Positions 1 through 16,951 of a DNA stretch of 64,000 nt are shown here, in pieces. Both the position numbers and the translations under genes were made by a program. Within the stretch, counting starts at the first letter, position 1, and each line of letters begins with the position of its first letter. The stretch spans positions 7,343 to 71,342 of the forward strand of contig JBBDWM010000042.1 of the NCBI GenBank assembly GCA_040902845.1, in the 5' to 3' direction. A model generated the notes under the pieces. It made no database searches, was not told the origin of the DNA, and saw only the letters and a program-made list of their open reading frames with translations. The DNA comes from Acidimicrobiia bacterium (lineage in GTDB: Bacteria > Actinomycetota > Acidimicrobiia > Spongiisociales > ZC4RG35).

Positions 1-132
1 CGGTGACACCACGTGGTTGAGCCGCACCAAAGGTGTCGGGTTGTCCACCCCGGGGAGCAGATCCCTCACATCCAGAAAGCGCCGCAGATCCCGATCAGTG
101 TCGAGCGAGAGGGCGACTGTTGTTGTTGTCAT
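1..132 (-). CDS. Cysteine synthase-family PLP enzyme (CysK/CysM/CysO-like), 5' end only; runs off the window
   Basis: Not in the ORF track. ATG at 132 reads MTTTTVALSLDTDRDLRRFLDVRDLLPGVDNPTPLVRLNHVVSP. NPTPLVRL is the typical fold-type II PLP enzyme N-terminal motif. GAGGA RBS lies upstream, and a Cys-rich leader precedes it. Confidence 0.75.
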   Translation of the reverse strand, partial: MTTTTVALSLDTDRDLRRFLDVRDLLPGVDNPTPLVRLNHVVSP

Positions 133-158
133 TGTCTCGTTTCCTCAAGTTGGGCAAC

Positions 159-189
159 AAAAAACCCGCATCCGAATGCCGGTGCGGGT
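159..189 (-). terminator. Intrinsic terminator of the cysteine attenuator
   Basis: Minus-strand RNA ACCCGCACCG-GCAUU-CGGAUGCGGGU followed by UUUUUGUUG: a 10-bp stem with one bulge, then a U-tract. Confidence 0.85.
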
Positions 190-223
190 CTGGTGTCTGT
201 CTTGGTTCTTGTTCAGTACATCA

Positions 224-292
224 CTACCCAACCGGCGCGGCGGCACAACAACAGGCGCAGACGCAAGCGCGGTCGGTGAGGTGATAGGTCAT
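224..292 (-). CDS. Cys-rich leader peptide, 22 aa: MTYHLTDRACVCACCCAAAPVG
   Basis: ATG at 292, TAG at 226-224 followed by TGA. Five Cys codons within seven. Lies directly upstream of the terminator and the cysteine synthase-like gene. Confidence 0.85.
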   Translation of the reverse strand: MTYHLTDRACVCACCCAAAPVG

Positions 293-300
293 TGCGCAGG

Positions 301-328
301 ATGGTAGGCGTTACTGGTGGTTCGTCAA
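301..328 (-). promoter_or_regulatory. Sigma70-type promoter for the leader peptide
   Basis: TTGACG (328-323), 16-nt spacer, TACCAT (306-301), then 8 nt to the leader ATG. Confidence 0.7.
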
Positions 329-348
329 GGGGAGGCTCCCCCGTTCCA

Positions 349-392
349 GAGACACACAGGGGTCATATCCGGCCCTGAGCGTCCCAATTACG
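349..392. repeat. Palindromic repeat family A, degenerate copy 1
   Basis: CAGGG-GTCATATCCGG-CCCTGAGCGTCCCAATTACG matches the copies at 34991 and 40387; the left outer arm is decayed. Confidence 0.6.
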
Positions 393-407
393 AAGAGAGG
401 AGAGGGG

Positions 408-1145
408 TCAGTTGCTGAAGGTGACCGAGAAGGCGGGGGCCCATCTGGTCACGACCCGGCCGTAGTTCTCGCCGGCGGCGAGCATGTCCCCCTCGGCGAG
501 GGCGTTCACCGACTGCTGGACCAACTCCACGGATTCGTCGAAAACCAGGTCCTGGGGGTCGAAGAGCTCTGACACCTGGTCGTAATCCAATTCCAGCATC
601 GAGTCGTCGGGGAACAGACTCAGCCACTCCGAAAGTTGCCCCAACTCCTCGGCTGGCCCCTGGAAGATCTGCAACCCGCGCAGCACCTCCAGCACCCGCT
701 CGATGCGCTCCCGCGCCACCTCGAGATCGACCCGATAGCGAAGGCGGGCCTGGCCCTCGATCTCGTAGACCTCCTTGTCCTCGGAAACGAAGGCGGTGAA
801 CCAGCGAACCGGCACGTGCCAAGTAGAAGTCAGCACGTGTGAACGATGCAACGGGTGTTCTTCGTGATACCTGCGCAACTCCTGGTCGGCGGACCGTGCC
901 GCTTCCTCGGGGATCAGCCCTGCCCCCATCCCCCGAAACGCATTGGCAAAGGCGACCGTCGATTCGAGGACGCGAAGCCGGAGGTTTCGCGGGCACACCA
1001 GCCTCCTGCCATTCCAATCAACGGCCCAATCGCCTTCACCCTCGGTTTCGGAGAGAAGGCCATACGACCGCACAAAACCAGGCACCAAGTCGTCGCCTTC
1101 GACGACTTCGGGGGTGTAGACCCGGAGAAAGGCGGTCTTGATCAC
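408..1145 (-). CDS. Conserved actinobacterial hypothetical protein
   Basis: About 245-aa ORF with a likely GTG start at 1145 (VIKTAFLRVY). Motifs WHVPVRWF and LELDY. No function recognised. Confidence 0.7.
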   Translation of the reverse strand: MIKTAFLRVYTPEVVEGDDLVPGFVRSYGLLSETEGEGDWAVDWNGRRLVCPRNLRLRVLESTVAFANAFRGMGAGLIPEEAARSADQELRRYHEEHPLHRSHVLTSTWHVPVRWFTAFVSEDKEVYEIEGQARLRYRVDLEVARERIERVLEVLRGLQIFQGPAEELGQLSEWLSLFPDDSMLELDYDQVSELFDPQDLVFDESVELVQQSVNALAEGDMLAAGENYGRVVTRWAPAFSVTFSN

Positions 1146-1225
1146 GCCCCCATCCTGGCAGAGGGCGAGGGGTAGTATCGAAGAACGGAGTGACACCACC
1201 CGTTTGAGAAGGAGGACGGAGCCCG

Positions 1226-2305
1226 GTGGTATTCGACGACGTGGCCCGGGAGGGTCACGAACAGATCCTCTACGGGTACGACAAAGTATCCGGCCTCCGA
1301 ACGATCATCGCCATCCACTCCACGGCCCTCGGTCCCGCCCTCGGCGGGACCCGCTTTTTCCCATACGAAACCGAGGACGCTGCCCTCACCGACGTCCTCC
1401 GGCTGTCCAAGGGGATGACCTATAAGGCGGCTGCGGCAGGTCTCGACCTCGGTGGCGGCAAGGCGGTCATCATCGGCGACCCCAGGACCGACAAGAGCGA
1501 ACGTCTATTCCGCGCCTTCGGGCGGATCGTGGACAGTCTCCGCGGCCGTTACATCACCGCTGAAGATGTAGGTACCACCGCCCCCGACTTGGACATCGTT
1601 CGGCGTGAGACTCGATGGGCCTTTGGCAACAGTGTCTTCGAAGGAGGGTCGGGTGACCCCTCGCCGATCACCGCACGCGGCTTGTACGCCGCGGCAAGGG
1701 GTGTGGCTCAGTTCCTCTGGAATGACCCCGAACTTGGTGGACGGCGTTTTGCGGTCCAGGGGGTGGGCAAGGTCGGCTCGGCCTTGGTCCAACTTCTGGT
1801 GGAAGCCAGGGCAGAGGTGATCGTCTCGGACTGCTACGAACCGGCGATCAAGGCGGCCGTCGAGAACTTCGGAGTCAAGAGCGTGGAACCAGATCAGATC
1901 CATGCCGTCGACTGCGATTTCTATTCGCCTTGTGCCCTCGGAGCCGGATTGAACCCGACGACTATCCCCGAGCTCAACTGCCAGGCCATCGTGGGCAGCG
2001 CCAACAACCAGTTGGCCAATCCAAGCGACGCGGATCTGTTGGCGGCCCGGGGAATCCTCTACGCCCCGGACTTCGTGGTCAACGCCGGAGGGTTGATCAA
2101 CGTCTACGACGAGTTGCAGGGCTACTCCAAGATGCGCGCCATGCACCGGGTCGACTCGATCTTCGAGGCCACGATGGAAGTCCTGGCAAGGGCGAAGCGA
2201 GAAGGGGTGAATCCCAATACGGCCGCGGTGAGCAAGGCCGAGGAGCGGATCAGGGACATCGGCGACTTGCGGCGATTCCGGAGAAGCGGAGAAGATCGGA
2301 ATTGA
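1226..2305 (+). CDS. Leu/Val dehydrogenase (Glu/Leu/Phe/Val dehydrogenase family)
   Basis: GPALGGTR, LSKGMTYK, GGGKAV, AEDVGT, GVGKVG, GSANNQL; AGGAGG RBS. Confidence 0.92.
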   Translation: MVFDDVAREGHEQILYGYDKVSGLRTIIAIHSTALGPALGGTRFFPYETEDAALTDVLRLSKGMTYKAAAAGLDLGGGKAVIIGDPRTDKSERLFRAFGRIVDSLRGRYITAEDVGTTAPDLDIVRRETRWAFGNSVFEGGSGDPSPITARGLYAAARGVAQFLWNDPELGGRRFAVQGVGKVGSALVQLLVEARAEVIVSDCYEPAIKAAVENFGVKSVEPDQIHAVDCDFYSPCALGAGLNPTTIPELNCQAIVGSANNQLANPSDADLLAARGILYAPDFVVNAGGLINVYDELQGYSKMRAMHRVDSIFEATMEVLARAKREGVNPNTAAVSKAEERIRDIGDLRRFRRSGEDRN

Positions 2306-2322
2306 TTCATCGTTCCCTTGGC

Positions 2323-4347
2323 ATGGACTTCGACAGGAACCTGCACCATTGGGAGTTGGGGTTGACCGACGACCAGATGGTCGAGATGTACCGCTTGATG
2401 CTCACGGCGAGACGTGTCGACGACCGCATGTTCGCACTCCAACGCCAGGGCCGGGCCCCGTTTGTGGTCGGCTCCTCTGGCCATGAGGCGGTCCAGGTGG
2501 CGTCAGTATTCGCCCTCGACCGAGCCAAGGACTGGGTCCTCCCCTACTACCGGGACATGGGCGTGGCCCTGGCCTGGGGCTTCACCCCCGAGGACATCTT
2601 CCTCGGGGCCTTCGCCAAGAAGTCCGACCCTATGTCCGGCGGGCGCCAGCTCCCGGGGCATTGGTCGAGCCCAGAGCTCAGGGTTCTTACTCAATCCTCG
2701 GTTATCGCGACTCAATACCCGCACGCGGTCGGGATCGCCCAGGCGATCGTGACCAGAGGAGAGGATGCGGTGGTGGCCGTATACGGGGGAGAAGGGTCGA
2801 CCTCGGAGGGGGATTGGCACGAGGCGATGAACTGGGCCGGCATCCGCAAGCTCCCAATCATCTTCGTCATCGAGAACAACAACTACGCCATCTCGGTGCC
2901 GAGCGAGGAGCAAGTGGCCGGGAGTCTTGCCGCCAGGGCCACCGGCTACGGGTTCCCTGGAGTCGAGGTCGATGGCAACCGGACACTCCGGGTCCTCAAG
3001 GTGATGCAGGAGGCCGTGGCCAGAGCGCGAGCCGGCGAGGGCTCGACCCTTATCGAAGCAGAGACCTATCGCTACTACGCCCACACCTCCGACGACAACG
3101 ACGCCCTCTATCGCAGCCGGGAGGAGGTCGAGACGTGGCGCAAGCGTGACCCGGTGGCCCGGGTCCGCCAATACCTCATCGAGAACAGATTGCTGACCGA
3201 GGCCGAGGAGAACGCGCTCGACGACGAGGTGGTCAGGAGCCTGGCACAGGCCGTGGAAGTGGCTGAGGCTGCACCTGTCCCGGATGAGCCGACGTCGCGG
3301 GTCTACGCGAGGGTCATCGAGCCCGGGCCTCCGGTCACCGAGCCGGAGCCGACGCCCATAGGAGAGACGGTCAACCTGATCACAGCAATCAACAGGGCCC
3401 TCCACGAGGTCTTCGAGGCCCACGATGACGTGGTCCTGTTCGGTGAGGACGTTGCCCGGCGAAAAGGCGGGGTGTTCAAGGCGACCCAGGACCTGACCGA
3501 GCGTTTCGGGGCGAAGCGGTGCTTCAACACCCCGATTGCCGAGTCCTCGATCATCGGAGCCGCCATCGGAATGTCGGTAGCTGGGTTCAAGGTGATCCCC
3601 GAGATCCAGTTCGCCGACTACATCCATCCGGCCTTTGACCAGATCGTGTCCGAGGCGGCAAGGATCAGTTTTCGATCCGACGGCCGTTGGAACGTGCCAA
3701 TCGTGATTCGAACTCCATACGGGGCCGGCATCCATGGAGCGCTCTATCACTCCCAGTCGATCGAGTCGTTCTACGCCCACGTCCCGGGTTTGAAGGTCGT
3801 GGTCCCGTCAACACCTGCCGACGTCAAGGGACTCCTGTTCACTGCGGTCGAGGATCCCGATCCGGTGATCTTCCTCGAGCCGAAGAAGCTCTACCGGCTC
3901 GCCAAGGGCCCCTACCCCGAGGGCGAGTACCGGGTGCCATTGGGCCGGGCCGCGATACGTCACCAGGGATCGGATCTCACGATCATCGCCTATGGGGCCA
4001 TGGCTCATTTCGCCATGGAGGCGGTTCCCGTTCTCGAAGAGTTGGGGATCAGCCCAGAATTGATCGACCTGCGCAGTCTCAAGCCTCTCGATTGGCCGAC
4101 GATCGAGGAGTCGATCAAGAAAACCTCGAGGGCTCTCATCGTGCATGAGGACAACGAGTTCGTCGGCTACGGCGCTGAGATCGCAGCCCAAATCGCCGAC
4201 AAGACCTTCGAATACCTGGACGCCCCGGTTCGGAGATACGCCCTGGCCGACGTGCCGTCGATGCCCTACGCCGGATCGCTGGAGAACGAGCTGTATCCCT
4301 CCCCTGAAGGGATCGTCCGCCACGCCCAGGATCTGGCGAAGTATTAG
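2323..4347 (+). CDS. Fused E1 alpha/beta 2-oxoacid dehydrogenase, probably branched-chain specific
   Basis: ThDP motif GEG...ENN in the alpha half; GEDV, GGVF, EIQFADY, HSQS, FLEPK in the beta half. True start is ATG 2323, not 1930. Confidence 0.9.
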   Translation: MDFDRNLHHWELGLTDDQMVEMYRLMLTARRVDDRMFALQRQGRAPFVVGSSGHEAVQVASVFALDRAKDWVLPYYRDMGVALAWGFTPEDIFLGAFAKKSDPMSGGRQLPGHWSSPELRVLTQSSVIATQYPHAVGIAQAIVTRGEDAVVAVYGGEGSTSEGDWHEAMNWAGIRKLPIIFVIENNNYAISVPSEEQVAGSLAARATGYGFPGVEVDGNRTLRVLKVMQEAVARARAGEGSTLIEAETYRYYAHTSDDNDALYRSREEVETWRKRDPVARVRQYLIENRLLTEAEENALDDEVVRSLAQAVEVAEAAPVPDEPTSRVYARVIEPGPPVTEPEPTPIGETVNLITAINRALHEVFEAHDDVVLFGEDVARRKGGVFKATQDLTERFGAKRCFNTPIAESSIIGAAIGMSVAGFKVIPEIQFADYIHPAFDQIVSEAARISFRSDGRWNVPIVIRTPYGAGIHGALYHSQSIESFYAHVPGLKVVVPSTPADVKGLLFTAVEDPDPVIFLEPKKLYRLAKGPYPEGEYRVPLGRAAIRHQGSDLTIIAYGAMAHFAMEAVPVLEELGISPELIDLRSLKPLDWPTIEESIKKTSRALIVHEDNEFVGYGAEIAAQIADKTFEYLDAPVRRYALADVPSMPYAGSLENELYPSPEGIVRHAQDLAKY

Positions 4348-4362
4348 GCGCCCGGCGGGCGC

Positions 4363-4392
4363 CGCAATACGCAAAACGCAAAACGCAATACG
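4363..4392. repeat. Heptamer tandem array CGCAATA-CGCAAAA-CGCAAAA-CGCAATA following a GC hairpin
   Basis: Read directly; preceded by GGCGCCC-GGC-GGGCGCC (4347-4363). Confidence 0.7.
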
Positions 4393-4428
4393 TTGGGCGT
4401 TTGACGGACTCCTAAGGTCTCCGACCAT

Positions 4429-6192
4429 ATGTCGCTGATCGCCCATCTGACCCAAATCGCCGGTGCGGCCTTCTCCAAGCTCGGGTTTCCCGCCGCCCTC
4501 GGTGAGGTCGTGCCCTCGCAGCGGCCCGAACTGGCCCAGTTTCAATGCAATGGGGCCATGAGCGCGGCCAAGGTCGCAGGAAGGCCCCCCGCTGAGATCG
4601 CGGCAGAGGTAGCAGGCCTAATAGCGGCCAACGTGGACATCGCCCGGGCCGAGGTGGCCCCACCCGGCTTTATCAACATCACACTGACCGACGACGCCCT
4701 GGCGCGCTGGGCCGGTCTCTCAGCCGGTGACGGCCATCTGGGGTATCCGGTCACCGCTACTCCCGAGAACGTGGTGGTCGACTACGCCGGCCCCAATGTC
4801 TCCAAGGCGATGCACGTCGGTCATCTCCGGGCAACCATCATTGGGGACTCCCTGGCCCGCCTCTTCACCTTTGCCGGGCACAAGGTGATCCGCGACCCCC
4901 ACTTCGGCGACTGGGGCTTCAACATGGGGTTGCTCATCGCCGCCATCGAGGAGGCCCAATCCGACCTTCCGTACTTCGACGCCGGCGTCTCCCAATTCCC
5001 AGAACAGTCTCCTGTGTCCCTCGACGACCTGGAGCGGTTGTATCCGGAGGCCGCGGCGAGGGCCCGCGCCGACACTGCTTTCGCCCACACCGCGCGGGAG
5101 GCGACGGTCCGTCTCCAACAGGGCGACCCTGGGTATCTGGCCTTGTGGCGGCACATGAAATACGCCTCCGAGGTGGCCCAACGCGAGGACTTCGCCTCCC
5201 TCGGGGTGAACTTCGACCTCTGGTACGGGGAGTCTGACGTCCGAGATCGGATCGCCCCGATGGTCGCCTCGCTGGTCGCGTCCGGGGTCACCGAAGAGTC
5301 GGACGGTGCGATCGTCATAAGGGTCGCCGAGGAAGACGACAAGCGAGACATCCCACCGCTGATCCTGGAATCGTCGGTGGGAGGCTCCCTTTACAGCACG
5401 ACCGATCTGGCCACCATCGAGATGCGGATGGAGGAGCTTCACGCCGAACTCGTCCTCTACGTGGTGGACAAGCGGCAAGCCGACCATTTCCTCCAGCTGT
5501 TCCGTGCCGCACACAAGGCAGGGATGATCCCGACCGGGGCCAGACTCGAGCACATCTGGTTCGGGACCATGAACGGCCCCGATGGCAAGCCGTTCAAGAC
5601 CAGAGAGGGGGGTGTAGTCCGGCTGGCCGATGTGATCGAGATGCTCACCGACGCCGCCCGCCGCCGGTTGGACGAGGCGCATCTAGCCGAGGACTACCCC
5701 GCCGAGGAAAGGGAACGCATCGCCTCGTTGGTGGGGATCGCCGCGTTGAAGTTCGGGGACCTGATCAACAACCGGGTCTCGGACTACGTGTTCGACCTCG
5801 ATCGGTTCAGCTCCTTCGAGGGAAAGACCGGCCCCTACCTCCAATACGCCGCGGTGCGCATCAAGTCGATCCTGCGCAAAGCCGTCGAGGCAGGTTTGAG
5901 CCAGGGCGAGATCTCACCGCCGGCGGTCGATGTCGAGCGAGACCTGGTCGTGGATCTGTTGCGGCTCCCCGAGGTGGTCCAGCGCACGATCGACCTCCGA
6001 TCTCCCAACCACGTGGCGGAGTTCGCCTACGGGGTGGCGGGCCGTTTCAACCGCTTCTATGACACCTGTCACATCCTCTCCGAACCCGACCCGGTGCGAC
6101 AGGCGTCATGGCTTGCGCTTTCGGCGTGGGCGCTGAGGGCATTGGAACGTCTGCTCGACCTGTTGGGGATCGAGATTCCCGACCGGATGTAG
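4429..6192 (+). CDS. argS: Arginine--tRNA ligase
   Basis: PNVSKAMHVGHLR (HIGH-type motif), GDWG, FKTREG, GKTGPYLQYA. Confidence 0.96.
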   Translation: MSLIAHLTQIAGAAFSKLGFPAALGEVVPSQRPELAQFQCNGAMSAAKVAGRPPAEIAAEVAGLIAANVDIARAEVAPPGFINITLTDDALARWAGLSAGDGHLGYPVTATPENVVVDYAGPNVSKAMHVGHLRATIIGDSLARLFTFAGHKVIRDPHFGDWGFNMGLLIAAIEEAQSDLPYFDAGVSQFPEQSPVSLDDLERLYPEAAARARADTAFAHTAREATVRLQQGDPGYLALWRHMKYASEVAQREDFASLGVNFDLWYGESDVRDRIAPMVASLVASGVTEESDGAIVIRVAEEDDKRDIPPLILESSVGGSLYSTTDLATIEMRMEELHAELVLYVVDKRQADHFLQLFRAAHKAGMIPTGARLEHIWFGTMNGPDGKPFKTREGGVVRLADVIEMLTDAARRRLDEAHLAEDYPAEERERIASLVGIAALKFGDLINNRVSDYVFDLDRFSSFEGKTGPYLQYAAVRIKSILRKAVEAGLSQGEISPPAVDVERDLVVDLLRLPEVVQRTIDLRSPNHVAEFAYGVAGRFNRFYDTCHILSEPDPVRQASWLALSAWALRALERLLDLLGIEIPDRM

Positions 6193-6194
6193 AC

Positions 6195-7037
6195 ATGGCC
6201 TTCACGCTTCGCCCCGCACGCCAGGACGATGTGCCCAAGATCGAGCCCTGGACTCGTGACACCTTCACCTGGGGCGACTACGTGGGTGAGGCGTTGCCAA
6301 CATGGATTGAGGATCAGAGGTCAATGGTTGTGGTTTGTGTCGACGGCGACGACAACCCCCTGGCGATGTCACGTGCCGAAATGCTGTCCCCGACCGAAGG
6401 ATGGTTGAGTGCGGCGCGGGTCCATCCCGATCATCGTCGGGCCGGGATGGGTGCGGCCATGAACGACTACGGGGTGCAATGGACACGAGAGCATGGGGCA
6501 CAAATCGTCCGACTCGTGATCGAGGAGGAGAACCAGGCGGCAAGATCCCAGGTCGAGAAGCTCGGCTATCGCAACACCTGTGTCTGGATCCTGGGGACCG
6601 CCGAGACACCGCGAGGGCCGCTGCCGCGAGAGCGGGACCGGCTTCACCCGGCCTCGGGCGCCGATGCCGATGCCGGCTGGCTGATGTGGCTGGGAAGCGA
6701 TTTGGCCCGGGCCGGCCGGGAGCTCTATCCGGGGAACTGGCGGTGGCGCAAGGCACTCCGAAGCGACCTCGACATCCCGGTGAGCGACCGGAACCTGCTC
6801 CAGGGTGGCGCCGGTTGGGTGGTGGCCGTCCCCGATCAGGACACGCTGGGGGTGGCTTGGATGGTCACCGACCCGGCTGACTGCCCTGCGCTCCTCGAGG
6901 GAATCGCCGAAGTTACCCGTCAGTTGGGAATGGCCCGGATCGAGATCTACATCCCGGAGACACCATGGAGTGGCGAGGCGTTGATCAGGGAAGGATTCGC
7001 GACTCGACGACTATTGATTTACGCCAAGAGTTTGTAG
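6195..7037 (+). CDS. GNAT family N-acetyltransferase
   Basis: RVHPDHRRAGMG motif A and N..A...EKLGY; start refined to ATG 6195. Confidence 0.8.
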   Translation: MAFTLRPARQDDVPKIEPWTRDTFTWGDYVGEALPTWIEDQRSMVVVCVDGDDNPLAMSRAEMLSPTEGWLSAARVHPDHRRAGMGAAMNDYGVQWTREHGAQIVRLVIEEENQAARSQVEKLGYRNTCVWILGTAETPRGPLPRERDRLHPASGADADAGWLMWLGSDLARAGRELYPGNWRWRKALRSDLDIPVSDRNLLQGGAGWVVAVPDQDTLGVAWMVTDPADCPALLEGIAEVTRQLGMARIEIYIPETPWSGEALIREGFATRRLLIYAKSL

Positions 7038-7040
7038 GTC

Positions 7041-7631
7041 TCAGGCGAAGATCGCCATCGTGGCGATAGCCCAGACCACGAACAGACAGGGCACATCGGC
7101 CCGCTCCAACCAGGACGGGGCGTTCGGGGCCCAGCGAATGAGCAGTGAAAGCGGCACCCCGATCAGGGGCATGACCACCATGCCGGCGATCCCAACCGCC
7201 CGCAGCCCTTCGGCGCCCTTGTGAAGGGGCTCAGGTAGGTCTTCGAGAAGCCCACTGATGACCCCGTAGGCCAGCAAGGCGGCGAATCCGACAAGAAACA
7301 CAGCCACCGTCCGGCCGATACCCACTTCCCAGAGCTGGAAACCGACCAGTTTTCGGCCCCGGCCGAGAGGGCCCTCGGATGCGACCCCAAGACAGAACAG
7401 ACCGACGATCGCCAGAACGAGAGCAGAAGCGAGCATGGCACCGGTGGATAGTTCCTGGACGACGTTGACGATCTCAAAGCCGGCGAGCAGAACGGCGATC
7501 GCCAGGCCAACGAGAAGACTTCCCAGGACCATCAATCCCACGTCGAGCATCGTGCCGAACGCCCCATAGGCGAGGATGGCGTAACGCTTGACCATTGCGA
7601 GGGGGTCGGTGCGGCTGGCGCCTTCGGTCAA
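7041..7631 (-). CDS. Hypothetical integral membrane protein
   Basis: Several hydrophobic helices; TTG start overlapping the glcF stop (TTGA) with a GGAGGAG RBS. Confidence 0.65.
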   Translation of the reverse strand: MTEGASRTDPLAMVKRYAILAYGAFGTMLDVGLMVLGSLLVGLAIAVLLAGFEIVNVVQELSTGAMLASALVLAIVGLFCLGVASEGPLGRGRKLVGFQLWEVGIGRTVAVFLVGFAALLAYGVISGLLEDLPEPLHKGAEGLRAVGIAGMVVMPLIGVPLSLLIRWAPNAPSWLERADVPCLFVVWAIATMAIFA

Positions 7632-8881
7632 CGTGACTCCTCCAAGGCGGCGACGATACCGCCCAACCTTTCCCGTTTGATGGCTTGCAGGTACCACTCG
7701 ATGGGGTGGGCGACCTCAAACCCGTCACCGAGTGCGCTTCGCAGCTGCATCTCACAACCGGGGTTGGCGGACGCCACTTTTGTCACCCCGGTTGAACGAA
7801 CCTGGGCCGCCTTTTGGTTTCCGAGCTCCTGGGAAGCCTCAGGCTGGAGGATGGTGTAGAGACCGGCAGCGCCACAGCACATGCCGGTGGGGTCGATCTC
7901 GACCACCTCGTAACCGGCGGCCTGGAGGATCAGCCTCGGCTCGACCATGACCTTCTGGGCATGACGAAGATGACACGGGTCCTGAACCGCCATCGAGCCG
8001 GATACCGATGCAACCTTGGGCAGCAATCCCCTTTCAATTGCGTTGGCGACCGCCACCGTCACGTCCAGCGCGGTCGACCCAACCCCCTCCCCACCACTCG
8101 CCCAGTGGGCGTAGTCGCGGAGATGCGCCGAGCAACCAGCCGCGGTGGCCACGACCATGTCGTAGCCGCTCAACACCGGCGTGTTGCGCTCCGCAAGCAG
8201 ATGGGCCTCCGGCGCCTTGCCGTCGTGGGCGGCGAGGGCGCCACAACAGGTCTGTCCCACCGGCACCTCGACCCGGTAACCGGCCAATTCCAACAACTCG
8301 ATGGCGGCGTGGTTGACCGGTTGGAACCACTGGTCCTGAATACACCCGGCAACTAGGGCCACCCTCCCCGACGTCCCGTCGCCTCCAACATGCCCGACCA
8401 CCGAGCCAGGCCGACCTCGCAGGTCCCGCATCCCCGAAGCCAGCCGACGCCACCTTCTTGGGGCCAGCTTCGTCGCCCCGGTCATCTGGGCCAGGCTGAG
8501 GGCGCTGCTCCCGAAACCGAGCGACCGACGAGAGCCGAGCACCGAGCCGAGCAGGAACGACCGGATTCGATGGGACATCGACGGGCGTTGGGCGACGATC
8601 TCGGCTCGAGTTCCCTCGAGGGCACGCCCGTATGGCACCAGACCGGGGCAAACCGGCTCGCAAGCGCGGCAACCCAGACAGAAGTCGATGATCCCCTGGA
8701 AAGTGGCATCGATCTCGATCACTCCCTCGTGAACTGCGCTCATCGCGTGCAACCTGCCTCGGGGCGAAGCGGTTTCCCGACCTGTGAGACGGTAGGTGGG
8801 GCAATGGGGCAGGCACAGACCGCATTGCACGCAGGCGTTCAACTCGTCGGTTGTCGGATGCTCGATCGTCACCCAACCCAT
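7628..8881 (-). CDS. glcF: Glycolate oxidase Fe-S subunit
   Basis: CVQCGLCLPHCP, SPRGR, CLGCRACEPVCP, two CCG domains; TGATG coupling to glcE. Confidence 0.88.
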   Translation of the reverse strand: MGWVTIEHPTTDELNACVQCGLCLPHCPTYRLTGRETASPRGRLHAMSAVHEGVIEIDATFQGIIDFCLGCRACEPVCPGLVPYGRALEGTRAEIVAQRPSMSHRIRSFLLGSVLGSRRSLGFGSSALSLAQMTGATKLAPRRWRRLASGMRDLRGRPGSVVGHVGGDGTSGRVALVAGCIQDQWFQPVNHAAIELLELAGYRVEVPVGQTCCGALAAHDGKAPEAHLLAERNTPVLSGYDMVVATAAGCSAHLRDYAHWASGGEGVGSTALDVTVAVANAIERGLLPKVASVSGSMAVQDPCHLRHAQKVMVEPRLILQAAGYEVVEIDPTGMCCGAAGLYTILQPEASQELGNQKAAQVRSTGVTKVASANPGCEMQLRSALGDGFEVAHPIEWYLQAIKRERLGGIVAALEESR

Positions 8882-9993
8882 CAGATGCCCCCAGGCAGCC
8901 GACCGGGGTTGATCACCCGCGTCGGATCGAACTGGCCGATCAGACGACGCTGGATCTCGAGGCCTTCCGGGACCGCTCCCCACGGATCGAATTGGGTGAG
9001 GGATCCCGGTGGCGAGTCGACAACCACCAACCGACCTGAATTGGCTTCGGCCCACCCCCTCAACTCGGGAGCCGCCTCGGCAGCATCAGAGCCGAGCCGG
9101 ATCTCCCCTACCCCGTGAATCGCTAGGTATCTCCAGGAGTCGGGCAGATTCGTGATCGCCGTTGCCGTCAGCGCCGGCGGCACCCGCATCGACCAGCGGA
9201 ACGCACCTTCAGGATCGGTCGGCCAGGTGTGGCCGGTGGTGACTTGGCCACCGATCCGGTCGGCGCTGGTCTCCACCTCCTCTTTGATCCCCCAGAGAAA
9301 CACCTGGGTGGTCCCGTCCTTCTCGAGCACGGCCAAAGGGCGAGACAGCACCCCGAGACGATCAGGGTCCGGATTGGTCACCGTGGCCTTGGCCCGAGGA
9401 ACCGGCCACAGCTTGAGACAAACCGACACCACCACCCCGAGGGCGCCGAAGGCGCCGACCACGAACCGGGACAGGTCGTAGCCGGAGACGTTTTTCACCA
9501 CCCGGCCTCCCGCCCGCACCAGCCGGCCATCCCCGGTCACCACTGTCACCTCGAGCAGCCGCTCGCGGGTGCCGAGGAGCCGGCCTCGCTTCAACGACGA
9601 CACACCGGCGGAGATCACTCCACCGATGGTCGCCGGCCCGGGATGCTCGGGCATGACCGCGGTTTGGTTCCGCTCGGCCAGCATTTTCTCGAATCTCGCC
9701 ACCGGCGTCCCCGCACCCAGGGTGAGAGTCATGTCATCGGGCTCCCAAGCCTCCACCGCGTCGAGACGCTCGGTGAGTAGGGCCAGATCCGGTGTCTCCA
9801 TCCGGCCGTAGCCCTGATGCGATCCCCCGCCCCACACCTGAATCTTGAGTCGGTGCTCGGTGGCGAAGCGAAGGATCGTTGCCACCTCGCCCGGTGAGTT
9901 GGGGGCAAGACCCGTCTCCGCCTCGGAGCCGGAGGGGACTTCGACCTCCATGCTCCGGATCGTGGCCGGGATGGCGCCGGGGACAACGGTCAA
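8881..9993 (-). CDS. glcE: Glycolate oxidase FAD-binding subunit
   Basis: GGRVVKNVSGYDL, GAFGALG, FDP..VINPG; TTG start coupled to the glcD stop. Confidence 0.8.
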   Translation of the reverse strand: MTVVPGAIPATIRSMEVEVPSGSEAETGLAPNSPGEVATILRFATEHRLKIQVWGGGSHQGYGRMETPDLALLTERLDAVEAWEPDDMTLTLGAGTPVARFEKMLAERNQTAVMPEHPGPATIGGVISAGVSSLKRGRLLGTRERLLEVTVVTGDGRLVRAGGRVVKNVSGYDLSRFVVGAFGALGVVVSVCLKLWPVPRAKATVTNPDPDRLGVLSRPLAVLEKDGTTQVFLWGIKEEVETSADRIGGQVTTGHTWPTDPEGAFRWSMRVPPALTATAITNLPDSWRYLAIHGVGEIRLGSDAAEAAPELRGWAEANSGRLVVVDSPPGSLTQFDPWGAVPEGLEIQRRLIGQFDPTRVINPGRLPGGI

Positions 9994-11417
9994 ACCCAGG
10001 CCCCCTCGGGGATTTCCTTGCGTACCCCGCCGAAATCGAAACACAGGGAGCCCTGTGGCAAGACCTTCGAGGGGTTGAAGATCCCCTTGGGGTCGAAGGC
10101 CTGCTTGAGCCGAGCCTGGGCGTCGAGATCGAGCTCGTTGAAGTTCATCCTCATCAGATCGCGCTTCTCGACACCGATCCCGTGCTCGCCGGACAGGGCA
10201 CCACCGTTTCGAATGCAGAGGGCCACGATTTCGTCCCCGGCGAGTCGGACTTTCTCGGCAGCAACCGGGTCAGAGGAGTCGAAGGCGATCAACGGATGGA
10301 GGTTGCCGTCGCCGGCATGGAACACGTTGACCAGAAGCAGCCCATGGCGGTCGGCGATTTCGGAGACGTCACGCATCGTCTCCACCAGACGGGTCCGGGG
10401 GACGACGGTGTCATGGAGGTAGTAGTCGGGCGCCAATTGGGCGACGGCGCCGAATGCCGACTTCCTGCCCTTCCACAAGAGCTGGCGTTCGGCTTCGGTC
10501 GACGCCATCCGGATCGCTTGGGAATGGCGACCCAGTGCAATCTCCCGGATGAGCTCCGCCTCGGCCTCCACGCCTGCGGTCTCGCCCACCACCTCGACGA
10601 GGAGGATGGCGGCCCGATCGGTAGGGAGACCGGCTTGAAGCCAATTCTCGACGGCCTGCATCATCCTCTGGTCCATCATCTCCAACGCCGCAGGGACACA
10701 GCCGGCGGCGATGATGTCGGAGACCGTGCCGCAGGCGTCCTCCACCTGGTCGAAGTCGATGAGCAGGGTCCTGACGTCGGGGTCGACCGGGATCAGCCTC
10801 ACCATGGCGCGGGTCACCACGCCGAGCGTCCCCTCCGAGCCCACGATGAGGCCCTTGAGATCGAGACCCGGGGTGTCGGGCGCCAACCCCCCCAGGACCA
10901 TCACCTCACCACCGGCCAGGACGACTTCGAGCCCGAGGACATGACTGGTGGTGCTGCCCTCGGCGAGACAGTGCGGACCGCCGCTGTTGTTGGCCACATT
11001 GCCGCCGATGGTGCAGGCCGACTGCGACGAGGGATCGGGGGCGAATTGGAGACCGAAGGGCGCGGCTGCGCGGGTGAGGTCGAGATTGATGACCCCAGCG
11101 CCGACCCAAGCCGACCGGTTCTCGAGATCGATTTCGACGGAGTTGAGCGAGGTGGTGGAGAGGACGATCCCACCCTCAGTGGGGCTGGCCCCAGCGGTGA
11201 GACCGGTCCCGGCCCCCCGCGCCACGACCGGCGCCTCGTGGATCTCCGCCAGTTTCACGATATCGGCCACTTCCCCGGTCGACCGGGGAAACACCACGCA
11301 GTTGGGGTGACCGCGCACCAACGACGAGGCGTCCTTGGAGTAGAGATAGAGCTCCACCGGCTCGTGGAGCACCCGGTCGGCACCAAGAAGATGTTCGAGA
11401 TCCGAGATCAATGACAT
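9990..11417 (-). CDS. glcD: Glycolate oxidase FAD-linked subunit
   Basis: RGAGTGL, PDPSSQ, GSEGTLG, HAGDGNLH, GEHGIG. Confidence 0.88.
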   Translation of the reverse strand: MSLISDLEHLLGADRVLHEPVELYLYSKDASSLVRGHPNCVVFPRSTGEVADIVKLAEIHEAPVVARGAGTGLTAGASPTEGGIVLSTTSLNSVEIDLENRSAWVGAGVINLDLTRAAAPFGLQFAPDPSSQSACTIGGNVANNSGGPHCLAEGSTTSHVLGLEVVLAGGEVMVLGGLAPDTPGLDLKGLIVGSEGTLGVVTRAMVRLIPVDPDVRTLLIDFDQVEDACGTVSDIIAAGCVPAALEMMDQRMMQAVENWLQAGLPTDRAAILLVEVVGETAGVEAEAELIREIALGRHSQAIRMASTEAERQLLWKGRKSAFGAVAQLAPDYYLHDTVVPRTRLVETMRDVSEIADRHGLLLVNVFHAGDGNLHPLIAFDSSDPVAAEKVRLAGDEIVALCIRNGGALSGEHGIGVEKRDLMRMNFNELDLDAQARLKQAFDPKGIFNPSKVLPQGSLCFDFGGVRKEIPEGAWV

Positions 11418-11439
11418 TGTTGGAAACGATAGGGGCAAA

Positions 11440-11607
11440 CCCCCCTCGCCTTCGCTGCGCTCAGACGGTCCCCCCTTCAAAAGGGGGGACAACAGCGGAG
11501 CAGGCGGACCGGTCGCCAGCGAGCGCGAGCCGCCAGAAAAGGGTTGTCCCCCTGCGGAGCGGGGGGGCCGGTCGCCAGCGAGCGCAGCGAGCGCGAGCGA
11601 AGGGGGG
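11440..11607. repeat. Composite REP/BIME-like palindromic element
   Basis: GTCCCCCC-loop-GGGGGGAC hairpin, an inverted partner GTTGTCCCCC...GGGGGGG, and an internal direct repeat CCGGTCGCCAGCGAGCGC. Confidence 0.6.
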
Positions 11608-11612
11608 ACTCA

Positions 11613-13151
11613 TCAGGGTTCCCCCCAGCCACCCCCGCCGGGGGTGAGGACCACCAGCCGGTCTCCGGGCTCCACCTCGACAGTGGTCTTGCCCGGAAGA
11701 CGGGTCCGGTCCCCCCGCCTCACCAGCCAATCTTCTCCGGGCTCCCCGGGCTCGCCACCGGCTAGGCCCCATGGCCGGTGGCGTCTCCGCTCGCCCATCA
11801 ACGACAGCGTGGCCGCAGCCTCGAACACGATGTCACGTTGGATGCCCTCACCACCTGGGAAACGGCCAGCGCCCCCGCTGCCCCGACGCAGGGTGTACTT
11901 CTCCACCCGAAACGGATAGTGGGTGTCCAGGGACTCGATCGGGGTGTTCTCGGTGTTGGTCATCCCGGTGTGGATCCCCGACTGCCCGGGCTTCCCCGGA
12001 CGGCCGCCCTGGCCTCCTCCCACCGTCTCGTAGTAGGCGAAATCGTCATTTCCGATCAGGACATTGTTCATGGTGCCCTGGGAGGCGGCCGGCACCCGAT
12101 CCGGTGCTGCCTGGGCCAGGGCTCCGAGCAGGACGTCGGCGATCCGCTGCGAGGTTTCGACATTGCCGGCCGCGACCGCGGCAGGAAATCGGGCATTGAC
12201 GATCGAGCCCTCCGGTGCGATGAGCTGGAGCGGGCGATAACAGCCCCCGTTGGCCGGGATCGTGGGGTCGGTGGCCACCCGTACCGCGTAGTAGAGACAG
12301 GACCGGGTGACCGCCTCCACGGCGTTGAAATTGGCCGCAACCTGCTCGTCGCTTCCGGTGAAGTCCGCGGTCAAGCTCTGCCCCTCGATGCTGACCCGAA
12401 CCCTGATCGCCACATCGCGGTCACCGTGCTCCATGAAGTCCACGAACTCGAACACGCCATCGGGAAGAGTGGAAAGCGCCGCCGTCATCCGCCGCTCGCC
12501 GTAGTCGAGGAGGGCCGAGGAGACGGTTGAGAACGTCTCGTGTCCCTCGGTCTCGACAAGCTCTTCGAGACGTCTCGCTCCGACCGCGTTGGCACCGATC
12601 TGGGCCGCGAGGTCTCCCCTCCGCTCCCATGGGGTGCGCGAGGCTGTCACAAAGGGCTCGCTGAAGCCCTCGACCCACCGGTCGTCGGAAACGGCCAGCG
12701 TCGGCGGCACCCGATGCCCTTCTTGATCCACGGTGACCGCGTGGGCCGGCATCGACCCGGGCGCCTCACCCCCGACATCGGCGTGATGGGCGCGATTGGC
12801 CACCCATCCCACATGCTGGCCGCGCACGAATACCGGTGCGACCAAGGTGAGGTCGTTGAGATGGGTGCCCCCGGCGAAGGGATCGTTGACTGCGTATTGA
12901 GATCCGGGCTCCGGGTCGAACCGCTGGAGACAGGCGGCCACCGACTCAGGCATCGAGCCGAGATGGACCGGGATGTGCTCGGCCTGGGCAAGCATCTCGC
13001 CTTCGGCATTGAAGATCGCCGCCGAGCAGTCGGCACGCTCCTTGATGTTCGGAGAAAGCGAGGTATGGCGCAGGACAATGCCCATCTCGTCGGCCACCGC
13101 AGCAAACCGGTTTCGGGCGACCTCCAGGGTGATGGCGTCGACCGTGGTCAT
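11613..13151 (-). CDS. Hydantoinase B / 5-oxoprolinase subunit
   Basis: SPNIKERADCS, HIPVHLGS, NDPFAGGTHLND, QGTMNN, TPGGGGWG. Confidence 0.92.
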   Translation of the reverse strand: MTTVDAITLEVARNRFAAVADEMGIVLRHTSLSPNIKERADCSAAIFNAEGEMLAQAEHIPVHLGSMPESVAACLQRFDPEPGSQYAVNDPFAGGTHLNDLTLVAPVFVRGQHVGWVANRAHHADVGGEAPGSMPAHAVTVDQEGHRVPPTLAVSDDRWVEGFSEPFVTASRTPWERRGDLAAQIGANAVGARRLEELVETEGHETFSTVSSALLDYGERRMTAALSTLPDGVFEFVDFMEHGDRDVAIRVRVSIEGQSLTADFTGSDEQVAANFNAVEAVTRSCLYYAVRVATDPTIPANGGCYRPLQLIAPEGSIVNARFPAAVAAGNVETSQRIADVLLGALAQAAPDRVPAASQGTMNNVLIGNDDFAYYETVGGGQGGRPGKPGQSGIHTGMTNTENTPIESLDTHYPFRVEKYTLRRGSGGAGRFPGGEGIQRDIVFEAAATLSLMGERRRHRPWGLAGGEPGEPGEDWLVRRGDRTRLPGKTTVEVEPGDRLVVLTPGGGGWGEP

Positions 13152-13846
13152 CGCATCAGATGCTGGATGTGCTTAGTCGCCTCACGAAAGCTGAGGCCGG
13201 AAAGCCGATCCCGGTGCGCCTCGGCGAAGTCGGCGACCGCCTCAGGATCGGTCTTGGCGTATTCGCGTAGCGCCCACCCGATCGCCTTGCGGATGAAGAA
13301 CTCCTTCTCATCGAGACGTCCCGCGCAGAACGAGAAGAGCCGATCGATGTCGGTTCTCCCCTTGGCCCCGACCTGACAGATGATGACGCTGCGACGCAAC
13401 CACATATCGGGATCGTCGATCCAGCGGTCGACCTCGGGCCAGACCTCAGTCGGGTGATGGACGACGAGATGGCCGACGAGATGAGTGGCGACCTCGTCCA
13501 CGAAATCCCACCAGGCCCCTTCGACGATCAGACGGCGATAGAGCGGAAGCGACGCGGTGTCGACAAAACTTCGGAAGTGCTGGGCCACCCCTAGCGCCAG
13601 GTACTTCTCCTCACGATGAGGCAAGTCCCAGAGCCCGAGGACCAACGCTTCATACTGGTCCCGATCGGCCGGGGGTAACTCTGCGACCAACTGTCGCAGG
13701 ATCGGGACACGCGCCGGTGTCTGCACCCCGAAGAAGGGCATTTCGGTCTTCATGTAGGCCTGCATTCCCGCCGCCTTCTCCGGTTGGGCCACCTCCGCAA
13801 GGGAGGTGGAGACGAAACGTCGCGCCCGTTCAACCAGATCGTTCAC
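13148..13846 (-). CDS. AlkD-like DNA alkylation repair protein (HEAT-like repeat)
   Basis: MQAYMK, WWDFVD, W.RR, EFFIRKAIGWALREYAK; GTG start at 13846. Confidence 0.88.
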   Translation of the reverse strand: MNDLVERARRFVSTSLAEVAQPEKAAGMQAYMKTEMPFFGVQTPARVPILRQLVAELPPADRDQYEALVLGLWDLPHREEKYLALGVAQHFRSFVDTASLPLYRRLIVEGAWWDFVDEVATHLVGHLVVHHPTEVWPEVDRWIDDPDMWLRRSVIICQVGAKGRTDIDRLFSFCAGRLDEKEFFIRKAIGWALREYAKTDPEAVADFAEAHRDRLSGLSFREATKHIQHLMR

Positions 13847-15744
13847 AGGCTGATCTCCAGAGTGCCGTCGTCGTGGACCAGCATCCGGTCCTCGGGGTCG
13901 AGCAGGGTCACCGAGTCCCGCTCCACGATGAGCGCCGGGCCCCGGGTCTCGAACCCGGCGGGAAGGTGGTCCCGATGCCAAACCACGCGGCCTTCCCCCG
14001 TGGTCGACATCGGCTCCGGTGCTCTATCGACCGATCTCCGGGGAAGATCACTCCAGTTGACCGGCGCATTCCCGGTCACGTCGGCTCGGAGGTCGACGAG
14101 CTCGATCGGCTCGCCCGGGCGATCGAACCCGAAATGAGAGCGATGGGCTTGCTCGAAAGAGGCTCGAACCTGGCTCCAGTCGGGATCAGCTAGCACCGCC
14201 AGCTCGTGGGACTGACCGACATACCGCACCTCTCCATAGACAACCGCCTCCCCCGACCCTGAGACATGCATCTCGTCAAAGGCTGCCCGGGCTTGGTCTC
14301 CGATCTCGGCCATCAGCTGGGCGAGTTGTCCCGAGCCTTCCTCCAGAAAGACGGTTCGCGTGGCGTCGGCCCGCGGTCTCGCCAACAACAGCCCGAGTGC
14401 GGAGAACACTCCCGACAATGGGGGAATCAGCACAGTGCGCATCCCCAGACGGCGGGCGAGTCGGGATGCGTGAAGCCCTCCAGCGCCTCCGAACGCCACC
14501 AGCACCGCATCACGCGGATCGGAGCCCTCCTCCACCGACACCGTTCTGATCGCACGTTCCATGTGGGAGTCGACGATCTCGAGCACCCCGCGGGCGGTTG
14601 CTGTCAGGTCGAGTCCTATTTCCCGACCCAGTTCGGTCAGAGCTTCGGCGGCGGCTGCCGCATCGAGGGGCACCGACCCGGCGAGGGCCAGATCGTCAGG
14701 CAGGAACCCGAGGATCACGTTGGCGTCAGTGACGGTTGGAACAGCTCCGCCCCGACCGTATGCCACCGGGCCGGGAATGGCGCCCGCGGACCGGGGCCCA
14801 ACCCTGAGGGCGTCTCCCTCGTCGCGCCAGCCAACGCTTCCCCCGCCGGCACCGATGGTGTTGACCGGGAGCGACGGCACCCGGTTCACCCGGCCCGCCA
14901 CCTTTCTCCCCATTCCGGCCAGGGCCTCGCCGTGGGTTATCCGGCACACATCAGTGGAAGTGCCACCCATGTCGAAGCTGATGGCCGAGCCGTGGCCTTT
15001 GGCCCGGGCGATCTCTGCTGCTGCGACCACCCCGGCTGCCGGGCCGGAGAGCACGAGGCGCCCGGCCAGCTCGGCGGCCGTGTTGAAGGGCAGCAGACCG
15101 CCGGCGGAGGTCATGACCAGACGGCTCGATGTCGCCAGCCTCTCGCCGAGATGTCGGAGATAACCCGACACCTCAGGTGAGAGATATGCGTTGAGAACCG
15201 TGGTGACGATCCGCTCGTACTCCCGGAACCCCGGGGAAACCATGGCACCGGAGGACACCGCTACTCCGAGCCGGGCCCCGATGATCGAAGCCAGCTCCAA
15301 TTCCTCTCGATGATCGGCATATGAGCGGACCAGGGCGACGGCAACCGCCTCCGGTTCGAGGGCTCCGAGCTTTTCCAGGATCTCCTCGGCCTGACCATCG
15401 ACTCCGAGACGAAGCTGGGGCGGAACCAGCGGGATCGGTCGGTCGACGAAGGGGTCGTAGAGGGACGGTCGAGCCTGACGGCCGATCTCGATCAGGTCCT
15501 CGAAGCCCTCGGACGTGACCAGAGCCACCCGGGCCCCACGTTCCTCGAGGAGGGCGTTGGTCCCGGCTGTCGTCCCGTGGAGAAACAGGGTGTCGGAGGT
15601 GACCTCGAGATCGGCAATGGCCTTCATCACCCCGACTGACTGATCGGGGGTGGTGGGAACCTTTCGTCCGATCAGGGTCTCCCCGTCGAAGGCGACGACA
15701 TCGGTGAAGGTGCCGCCGACATCGACTCCGACCGTCGAGGGCAC
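13843..15744 (-). CDS. Hydantoinase A / 5-oxoprolinase ATP-binding subunit
   Basis: GVDVGGTFTD, HGTT..TNALLE, SGPAAG, DMGGTSTD, GAGGGS, PTVTDAN. Confidence 0.92.
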   Translation of the reverse strand: MPSTVGVDVGGTFTDVVAFDGETLIGRKVPTTPDQSVGVMKAIADLEVTSDTLFLHGTTAGTNALLEERGARVALVTSEGFEDLIEIGRQARPSLYDPFVDRPIPLVPPQLRLGVDGQAEEILEKLGALEPEAVAVALVRSYADHREELELASIIGARLGVAVSSGAMVSPGFREYERIVTTVLNAYLSPEVSGYLRHLGERLATSSRLVMTSAGGLLPFNTAAELAGRLVLSGPAAGVVAAAEIARAKGHGSAISFDMGGTSTDVCRITHGEALAGMGRKVAGRVNRVPSLPVNTIGAGGGSVGWRDEGDALRVGPRSAGAIPGPVAYGRGGAVPTVTDANVILGFLPDDLALAGSVPLDAAAAAEALTELGREIGLDLTATARGVLEIVDSHMERAIRTVSVEEGSDPRDAVLVAFGGAGGLHASRLARRLGMRTVLIPPLSGVFSALGLLLARPRADATRTVFLEEGSGQLAQLMAEIGDQARAAFDEMHVSGSGEAVVYGEVRYVGQSHELAVLADPDWSQVRASFEQAHRSHFGFDRPGEPIELVDLRADVTGNAPVNWSDLPRRSVDRAPEPMSTTGEGRVVWHRDHLPAGFETRGPALIVERDSVTLLDPEDRMLVHDDGTLEISL

Positions 15745-15764
15745 CCGATTAGCCTCGGTGACCC

Positions 15765-16844: not shown

Positions 16845-16951
16845 GGTCTCGAACCTATGGGGACCGAAGTGCCCGTTCAAGGGGGTCGTGTTTCTAACCG
16901 GACCAGGCCAACCCGGGAACTCCAGGGGTTGAAGCTATCGTTTCGCCAGTC

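Follow-up and report, generated by a model that had tools for sequence, protein, structure and literature searches.

A predicted cysteine-sensing transcription attenuator ahead of a cysM-like/tusA/dsrE2 operon in Acidimicrobiia

Cysteine has long been without a classical attenuator, and those actinobacterial cysteine leaders that were studied experimentally act on translation. Whether the supply of this amino acid may also be coupled to transcription termination is the question raised by a locus at one end of a 64,000-nucleotide (nt) stretch of DNA from an Acidimicrobiia bacterium (assembly GCA_040902845.1, contig JBBDWM010000042.1, positions 7,343 to 71,342 of the forward strand; the whole stretch is referred to as the window, and coordinates are those of the window unless indicated otherwise). 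On its minus strand, a short open reading frame (ORF) rich in Cys codons is followed by a GC hairpin with a U-tract and by the 5′ end of a cysM-like cysteine synthase gene. Which parts are present, how they complement each other, how far they are conserved, and what genes lie downstream can be read directly from the DNA. With a probability of roughly 0.7, the arrangement represents a ribosome-mediated, near-leaderless transcription attenuator, which would sense charged tRNA-Cys and control a cysM-like/tusA/dsrE2 operon by regulated intrinsic termination.

Parts of the leader and their conservation

The source assembly (G000) comprises 2.03 Mb in 45 contigs, with 63% GC. In the direction of transcription, the following features were assigned:

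323..328, minus strand: −35-like hexamer TTGACG (sequence reading and consensus promoter scan)
301..306, minus strand: −10-like hexamer TACCAT, separated from the −35 hexamer by a 16-nt spacer and located 8 nt ahead of the ATG
224..292, minus strand: leader ORF of 22 codons plus stop, with its ATG at 292 and no Shine–Dalgarno (SD) sequence; peptide MTYHLTDRACVCACCCAAAPVG
267..276, minus strand: segment 1, predicted to pair with segment 2 in free RNA, the resulting hairpin enclosing the Cys codons
226..236, minus strand: segment 2, 5′ strand of the putative antiterminator, at the end of the leader ORF, its last base being the first base of the stop codon
190..223, minus strand: linker of 34 nt, G-poor and A/C-rich (A15 C8 G7 T4)
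164..189, minus strand: predicted terminator hairpin, with segment 3 as the 5′ arm (189-178) and segment 4 as the 3′ arm (174-164)
159..164, minus strand: run of six T, of which base 164 doubles as the stem-closing base, followed by G and TT
141..146, minus strand: SD sequence GAGGAA of the structural gene
1..132, minus strand: 5′ end of the cysM-like cysteine synthase gene (ATG at 132; 330 amino acids), which runs past the window edge

The original prediction, made from the letters of the window alone, had described a promoter, an SD-less ATG 8 nt further on, a Cys-containing ORF of 22 amino acids, an A/C-rich linker, a hairpin with a T-run, and a ribosome-binding site, all of which were found in their places. 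Five of the 22 leader codons specify Cys (265-263, 259-257, and 253-245). The promoter-like site (328-301) is well placed, without statistical enrichment: the consensus scan returned this single match in 1..1300 (0.2 expected) and the same single match in 1..20000 (2.0 expected). Folding of the RNA from 294 to 120 gave a minimum free energy (MFE) of −56.2 kcal/mol (z = −2.17; 4 of 200 shuffles were equally stable), and the centroid structure consisted of two elements only, the terminator hairpin and a hairpin of 276-267 with 237-226 that encloses the Cys codons. The terminator hairpin (189-164; −16.5 kcal/mol in a 41-nt frame) was present in both the MFE and the centroid structures (ViennaRNA), as had been anticipated, and the SD sequence at 146-141 was unpaired in both, giving no sign of SD sequestration.

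Of the orthologous loci (63-100% protein identity, counting that of the window), 19 had sufficient DNA upstream, and all 19 have a short ORF (sORF) with a Cys tract, its start lying 146-180 nt ahead of the gene; one locus with only 69 nt upstream (L017) was left out of this count. None was found at the eight paralog loci (43-46% identity). Removal of two loci from unpublished genomes (L014 from G011 and L033 from G038) changed the counts to 18/18 and 0/7, respectively. A larger set of named records held 80 loci, from which five with less than 130 nt upstream were set aside. A three-Cys sORF was found at 68 of the 75 readable loci, nearly all of them labelled Acidimicrobiia or Actinomycetota. 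It was missing at the other seven (L052, L090, L077, L103, L108, L115, and L116); L052 has an sORF with just two Cys codons (by eye). The last five of these are the readable loci labelled as other phyla (Planctomycetota, Planctomycetaceae, Chthoniobacteraceae, Deltaproteobacteria, and, for L103, “uncultured bacterium”), none of which has a poly-Cys sORF. The orthologous peptides vary in length, sequence, and Cys number (3-8); the Cys tract and a tail of the P-C/R/V-G type persist. A promoter pattern (TTGnnn, 16-19 nt, TAnnnT, 7-10 nt, start codon) precedes 47 of the 68 sORFs, and no SD-like motif was detected before the sORF at any of these 47 loci. From the gap of 7-10 nt and the lack of an SD sequence, we infer that the leader mRNA is leaderless or nearly so.

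The hairpin is conserved along with the sORF. At 64 of the 68 loci, a hairpin of −10 kcal/mol or lower is directly followed by a T-rich heptamer, and at the remaining four (L065, L072, L084, and L088) the hairpin is kept with a weaker tail; hairpin and U-tract lie 16-59 nt (median 27) ahead of the start codon of the gene. In an alignment of 70 distinct leaders, the 7-bp core stem was 95.5% paired, compared with 29-43% when the partner was slid. Five of its pairs are invariant and two covary (pair 104-136: AU 64, GC 4, GU 2; pair 111-130: AU 42, UA 4, CG 1, UG 1), and the covariation score was reached by 0 of 500 shuffles. A consensus terminator scan of 1..1300 called nothing and thereby missed the hairpin of the window, which is probably due to its loop limit of 8 nt, compared with the 12 nt enclosed by the uninterrupted 7-bp stem. 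Judged by their sequences, canonical terminators exist in the source genome yet are uncommon, and that of the window is among the most canonical. The GC hairpin and U-tract between leader ORF and gene are best described as a predicted intrinsic terminator.

The end of the leader ORF had been proposed to pair, over 11 bp with one bulge, with the 5′ arm of this terminator. Such pairing is present as described, 236-226 matching 189-178 in 11 pairs with one bulged C (−20.3 kcal/mol; RNAduplex). With alternative segment definitions, the value was −19.1 kcal/mol, equalled by 8 of 200 dinucleotide shuffles and 3 of 200 natural windows (this figure comes from locus L038, both segments of which are identical to those of the window). 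Equivalent complementarity between leader tail and terminator 5′ arm (CCCGCACCGG and variants) was found in nearly all orthologues. The mean duplex energy was −16.7 kcal/mol; dinucleotide-shuffled leader tails averaged −12.3, and natural windows taken from the same loci −9.9. At 24 of 62 distinct loci, no more than 5 of 200 shuffles were as good, and at 33 of the 62 no more than 10 of 200 natural windows. In the 70-leader alignment, the antiterminator cells were 77% paired (24-50% when slid). At some loci the strands change in step: L024 has CCCGCT in the 5′ arm, AGCGGG in the 3′ arm, and GAGCGGG in the leader, and at L099 and L112 the arm begins with GCCCGC and both partners end with GGGC. 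An independent sign of selection at the RNA level in segment 2 comes from the near-fixed codons of the leader tail, which is mostly CCG-TGC-GGG, with CGC, GTT, or TGT as alternative middle codons. Gly is encoded by GGG in 41 of the 48 distinct sORFs with [P/S]xG after the tract (26% in adjacent genes) and Pro by CCG in 41 of 43 at this motif (38% in adjacent genes), while the five Ser variants all use TCG, the change from P to S retaining a G-U pair.

The proposed switch and its alternatives

How could these parts work together? Transcription would begin at, or a few bases from, the ATG at 292, yielding a leaderless or near-leaderless mRNA, and a ribosome would translate the 22-codon leader as RNA polymerase proceeds. 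When Cys-tRNA is ample, the ribosome would get to the stop codon (226-224) and cover segment 2 (236-226), so that segment 3 (189-178) would pair with segment 4, and hairpin and U6 would bring about termination near 159. When Cys-tRNA is scarce, the ribosome would stall at the first Cys codons (265-257), covering segment 1 and leaving segment 2 free; segment 2 would then pair with segment 3 ahead of the synthesis of segment 4, no terminator would form, and polymerase would read through into the operon. The linkers (22-40 nt in 67 distinct cases; A 0.32, C 0.35, G 0.18, T 0.15) are probably long enough for a ribosome at the stop codon to leave segment 3 uncovered. What we infer from the arrangement of the sequence is where transcription starts, that it terminates at the hairpin, that the ribosome stalls, and that the system responds to cysteine. 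The stall and read-through logic of the original prediction is supported in silico by the Cys run, the hairpin with its U-tract, and the complementarity, all three retained across families of Acidimicrobiia, and by the likewise constructed Thr and Trp leaders described below.

Ribosome positions were simulated by masking 28 nt around the A site, followed by refolding. In the window, the terminator core had a probability of 1.00 both in free RNA and with a ribosome at the stop codon; placing the A site on Cys codon 1 or 2 lowered it to 0.18 or 0.17, respectively. The same response to the mask was obtained for most of the window's genus and close relatives. When the RNA was made to end before the 3′ arm, the mean paired fraction of segment 3 across the family was 0.82 with a stalled ribosome, 0.48 with the ribosome at the stop codon, and 0.62 in free RNA, and 43 of 70 loci displayed a clear difference between stalled and stop.

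Several results weigh against this interpretation. The lowering of the terminator by a masked ribosome held for Cys codons 1 and 2 of the window, but with a stall at codons 3-5 the core stayed at 1.00 at equilibrium. In many distant orthologues the terminator wins at equilibrium for every stall position, which means that the switch would have to be kinetic, by co-transcriptional trapping, as in textbook cases. In the truncated-transcript fold, the window itself offers little contrast (segment 3 paired 0.62-0.81 stalled, 0.59 at stop, and 0.75 free). Its 1:2 helix (−15.7 kcal/mol; 8 of 200 shuffles as good) has no significant counterpart across the family, where only 7 of 68 loci had 10 or fewer of 200 shuffles as good, and a protector helix of this kind was rejected as a general feature of the family. 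Alignment had been suggested as a check for covariation, and this was seen in two pairs of the terminator stem but not in the antiterminator (score 0.058 compared with 0.061 in shuffles, 345 of 500 of which were as high; MAFFT, 70 leaders), because both of its strands are conserved. What speaks for the antiterminator is conserved complementarity among related sequences; the covariation test is weak either way, since the alignment misplaces leaders (e.g., L024) and the sub-clade of the window stands in a shifted register. The orthologous loci are related to each other, and the counts given above are therefore not independent. The distance of 8 nt between −10 hexamer and ATG exceeds the usual 6-7, which makes the transcription start point uncertain, and the RNA contigs on the stretch (runs X17 and X21) cover 1191-1500 only, with nothing over 1-1150. 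As to terminators, the 2.03-Mb genome contains 316 runs of at least five T on both strands; T-runs behind a hairpin of −14 kcal/mol or lower number 39, compared with 18 in control windows, an excess of only about twofold, and a simple terminator scan of 1..20000, which again missed the hairpin of the window, found 11 where 9.9 were expected, i.e., no enrichment.

Termination could alternatively be Rho-dependent or of a mixed type, release of the ribosome at the stop codon exposing the A/C-rich linker to Rho and the hairpin serving as a pause site or an RNA-stabilising 3′ end. This is unlikely: the linker has just 22-40 nt, which is short for a Rho utilization (rut) site; 64 of the 68 loci retain a hairpin with a directly attached T-rich tail, T6 in the case of the window; and the complementarity between segment 2 and the terminator arm would be left without a reason. 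It is the G-poor, C-rich composition of the linkers at 67 distinct loci (G 0.18, C 0.35), the scarcity of canonical terminators in the source genome, and the weak T tails at 4 of 68 loci that favor Rho, which has also been proposed for actinobacterial Cys leaders (PMC1262725). A little less probable again is translational attenuation as in Mycobacterium smegmatis Ms5788A, although among the papers found it is the sole mechanism shown experimentally for actinobacterial poly-Cys leaderless sORFs (bioRxiv 10.1101/834739), and phylum, kind of sORF, and kind of downstream pathway are the same. In the window, GAGGAA is unpaired in both predicted structures, the Cys tract pairs inside the leader rather than with the SD sequence, and a hairpin with a U-tract, which the mycobacterial element lacks, is conserved 16-59 nt before the start codon.

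The sORF might also encode a functional Cys-rich peptide (e.g., one that binds metal or sulfur) or not be translated at all, the hairpin then being a constitutive, leaky terminator. Small Cys-rich peptides do exist, and the Cys tract is the conserved feature of this one; sequence, length, and Cys number (3-8) vary widely, however, and codon usage in the tail is held constant at the level of the RNA. Moreover, the same scaffold occurs with Thr, Met, or Trp runs before hom, metY, and trpE, which points to amino-acid sensing rather than to a function of the peptide and renders this explanation the most improbable of the three.

Leaders for other amino acids and comparison with known systems

Is the leader of the window an isolated case? 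Among 151 genomes sampled from the order, a covariance model built from leader tail, linker, and terminator matched 47, which represent 9 of 12 families, and 27 of the 30 best matches sit ahead of a cysM-like gene. Ten further matches, mostly weaker or second matches in the same genomes, were examined, seven of which are leaders of the same type with other codon runs. Thr runs precede homoserine dehydrogenase (L153, L156, and L157), and a Trp run precedes anthranilate synthase (L154). Met/Cys leaders (e.g., RMMCMACM) on the same scaffold are found before O-acetylhomoserine sulfhydrylase (metY) at L148 (G127), L152 (G090), and L155 (G041), and are possible methionine/cysteine attenuators; the match to O-acetylhomoserine sulfhydrylase scored 696 bits (cut-off 495). 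The genes behind L148, L152, L153, L154, and L156 were checked against NCBIfam, whereas those behind L155 and L157 were named by N-terminal likeness. Among the other matches, L149 is a Cys leader before a cysM-like gene, and L150 (G144) and L151 (G164) share the scaffold, have spaced Cys codons, and are followed by genes other than cysM. The first long ORF encodes a RimK-family ATP-grasp fragment behind L150 (47 bits) and an OsmC-related protein behind L151 (72 bits), both scores being below the cut-off; at both loci, another start codon lies closer to the hairpin than these ORFs.

Two such leaders were matched by the model in the source genome itself. The Thr leader (L158; C19:49057-49146, minus strand, plus ∼100 nt upstream; E = 0.003) has 21 codons, including ITTTTMT, and a promoter-like site, a linker, and a hairpin with a T-rich tail, followed by hom (homoserine dehydrogenase, 422 bits, cut-off 205). 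Its antiterminator is weak (−14.3 kcal/mol; 122 of 500 shuffles as good), and it is likely a threonine attenuator in which the antiterminator complementarity is weak. The Trp leader (L159; C37:34428-34526, minus strand, plus ∼70 nt upstream; E = 0.2) has 26 codons, including WWWRW, the promoter-like site TTGACG-17-TAGCGT 10 nt ahead of its ATG, a hairpin with a T-rich tail, and trpE (a homologue of anthranilate synthase component I) behind it. Its antiterminator, 11 bp of unrelated sequence, has −24.3 kcal/mol (1 of 500 shuffles as good). The presence of both leaders in the same genome makes classical attenuation in this lineage much more credible, and the series as a whole suggests repeated use of a single scaffold with sensing codons that differ. 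On balance, the leaders can be taken, with some reserve, as a near-leaderless attenuator family of Acidimicrobiia, in which a single terminator/antiterminator scaffold (leader tail CCG-NGN-GGG, G-poor linker, and CCCGC...GCGGG stem with U-tract) would have its sensing codons exchanged (Cys before cysM-tusA-dsrE2, Thr before hom, Met/Cys before metY), the Cys member being the first for a cysteine biosynthetic operon; the Trp leaders before trpE would share layout and terminator/antiterminator logic and have a different stem. Such a scaffold for Cys, Thr, and Met, together with a similarly built Trp leader, would be a natural series for studying how attenuator specificity changes. A wider Cys regulon within the source genome was considered and rejected: of 58 short ORFs with a tight Cys tract, three are followed by a hairpin and a T-run, and only at the leader of the window are these joined by the promoter pattern and by a downstream gene, which makes it the only full case.

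The mechanism as such is classical; new would be cysteine as the sensed amino acid for a biosynthetic operon, the Acidimicrobiia lineage, and the near-leaderless form. As in the Escherichia coli trp and Salmonella his attenuators, there is a codon run for the end product, a terminator before the first gene, and complementarity of the 3′ part of the leader to the terminator 5′ arm, as well as, in the window, a 1:2 hairpin. Unlike in these systems, cysteine would be sensed, the leader ORF is SD-less, starts 8 nt past the −10 hexamer, and would be near-leaderless, an unstructured linker of 22-40 nt separates segments 2 and 3, and the 1:2 helix is not conserved in the family. Rfam 15 gave nothing above noise for the leader of the window, the best overlap being Trp_leader (17 bits, threshold 41; E = 2.8).

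Actinobacterial trp attenuators have been predicted (PMC1262725). In mycobacteria, the Cys tract of the polycysteine leaderless sORFs base-pairs with the SD region, and the output is translational; a reporter revealed no transcription termination, and the authors state that no attenuation for cysteine mediated by an upstream ORF (uORF) had previously been described (Canestrari et al, bioRxiv 10.1101/834739). A paper from 2026 still cites this case as translation attenuation (PMC13236596). Common to both systems are the phylum Actinomycetota, a leaderless Cys-tract sORF before cysteine genes (indicated in the window by the −10 hexamer 8 nt before an ATG without SD sequence), and, if the proposal is correct, the stalled ribosome as sensor. 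Masking of the SD sequence by the Cys tract was not found in the window, where, unlike in mycobacteria, the SD sequence (146-141) is free in the MFE and centroid structures and a conserved terminator-like hairpin with a U-tract is the likely output. Seliverstov et al reported Cys leaders for cys operons (Mycobacterium, P. acnes) and for B. longum cbs, found no conserved terminator hairpin, and proposed a role for Rho (PMC1262725). These leaders belong to the same phylum, and in them, too, the Cys run lies close to the stop of a short ORF that precedes cysteine genes, whereas the Acidimicrobiia family has a nearly invariant GC stem and a U-tract. The statement in the original prediction that actinobacterial Cys leaders act on translation or through Rho agrees with these two sources.

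The combination of Cys leader and terminator has also been predicted elsewhere. The motif uORFC-8-2 of Brewer et al, a prediction only, comprises a Cys uORF and an intrinsic terminator before cysS in Rhodobacterales, and its authors interpret it as ribosome-mediated transcription attenuation sensing Cys-tRNA (PMC8632094). As in the leader of the window, a stem and a U run come after a uORF that contains Cys codons. The motif differs in being alphaproteobacterial, in controlling a tRNA synthetase rather than a biosynthetic operon, and in having its two tandem Cys codons within the first stem, and it showed no sequence relation to the leader of the window. Full-text searches, outside of which subscription-only papers and supplements lie, yielded no report of a Cys leader with terminator before cysteine synthase and no paper that combines Acidimicrobiia, leader peptides, and attenuation. 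The suspicion that the architecture may be undescribed holds up to this extent for cysteine synthase and for Acidimicrobiia, but because of the Rhodobacterales prediction, the idea of a Cys leader with a terminator is not wholly new. If the proposal is correct, this would be the first transcription-termination attenuator of a cysteine biosynthetic operon; attenuation of the trp/his type would extend to cysteine biosynthesis, to a little-studied, uncultured class of Actinomycetota, and to near-leaderless mRNAs, on which the ribosome must load at the extreme 5′ end to keep up with polymerase. A single phylum would then have wired the stall at Cys codons of a leaderless sORF to two outputs, termination here and SD masking in mycobacteria.

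The operon and neighboring sequences

Do the controlled genes fit the sensed amino acid? The downstream gene had been called cysteine synthase-like, and its product (330 amino acids) indeed matches PALP (236 bits); the cysKM and cysM models score highest, yet under their cut-offs, and among solved structures the product is closest to O-acetylserine sulfhydrylases and CysM (E = 5e-64 or lower). It is the sole match to the CysK/M family at E ≤ 1e-60 in the source genome. The next genes of the operon encode TusA (62.9 bits) and a DsrE2-like protein. Of the 80 named orthologous loci, 74 have tusA behind the gene and 63 have both tusA and dsrE2; the six without tusA are all labelled as another phylum or as “uncultured bacterium”. 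Just beyond the window (L009:5685-7474, minus strand) lies this set of a cysteine synthase homologue, in Acidimicrobiia loci always with tusA and usually with dsrE2. By gene content, a cysteine synthase homologue with tusA and dsrE2 fits cysteine as the sensed amino acid. The position of tusA and dsrE2 behind a cysteine synthase homologue may point to a route to cysteine fed by sulfur relay, and general knowledge of these families suggests that persulfide or thiosulfate carried on TusA/DsrE2 may feed it. If the attenuator is real, it marks the cysM-like/tusA/dsrE2 operon as cysteine-regulated and provides a signature for small ORFs that are missed by gene callers.

A dispersed palindromic repeat of ∼50 nt is located at ∼392-345, between the stop codon of the upstream gene (410-408) and the −35 hexamer. 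It consists of two 20-nt inverted arms and an 11-nt center, the right arm of the window's copy being decayed, and 27 blastn matches to it were found in the source genome (the window's own included). The promoters of the Thr and Trp leaders likewise have a copy immediately upstream, and many contigs assembled from DNA runs (X2 and X4) break or diverge at the edges of the repeat (349-351 and 392-394). It may be an element similar to repetitive extragenic palindromes (REP) or miniature inverted-repeat transposable elements (MITE), or an insulator or terminator for the upstream gene.

The RNA contigs mentioned above begin at 1191 (X17; its loose end resembles a sequencing adapter) and at 1195 (X21), between divergent genes starting at 1199 (minus strand) and 1226 (plus strand), which is a weak hint of a transcript end near 1191-1195 on either strand.

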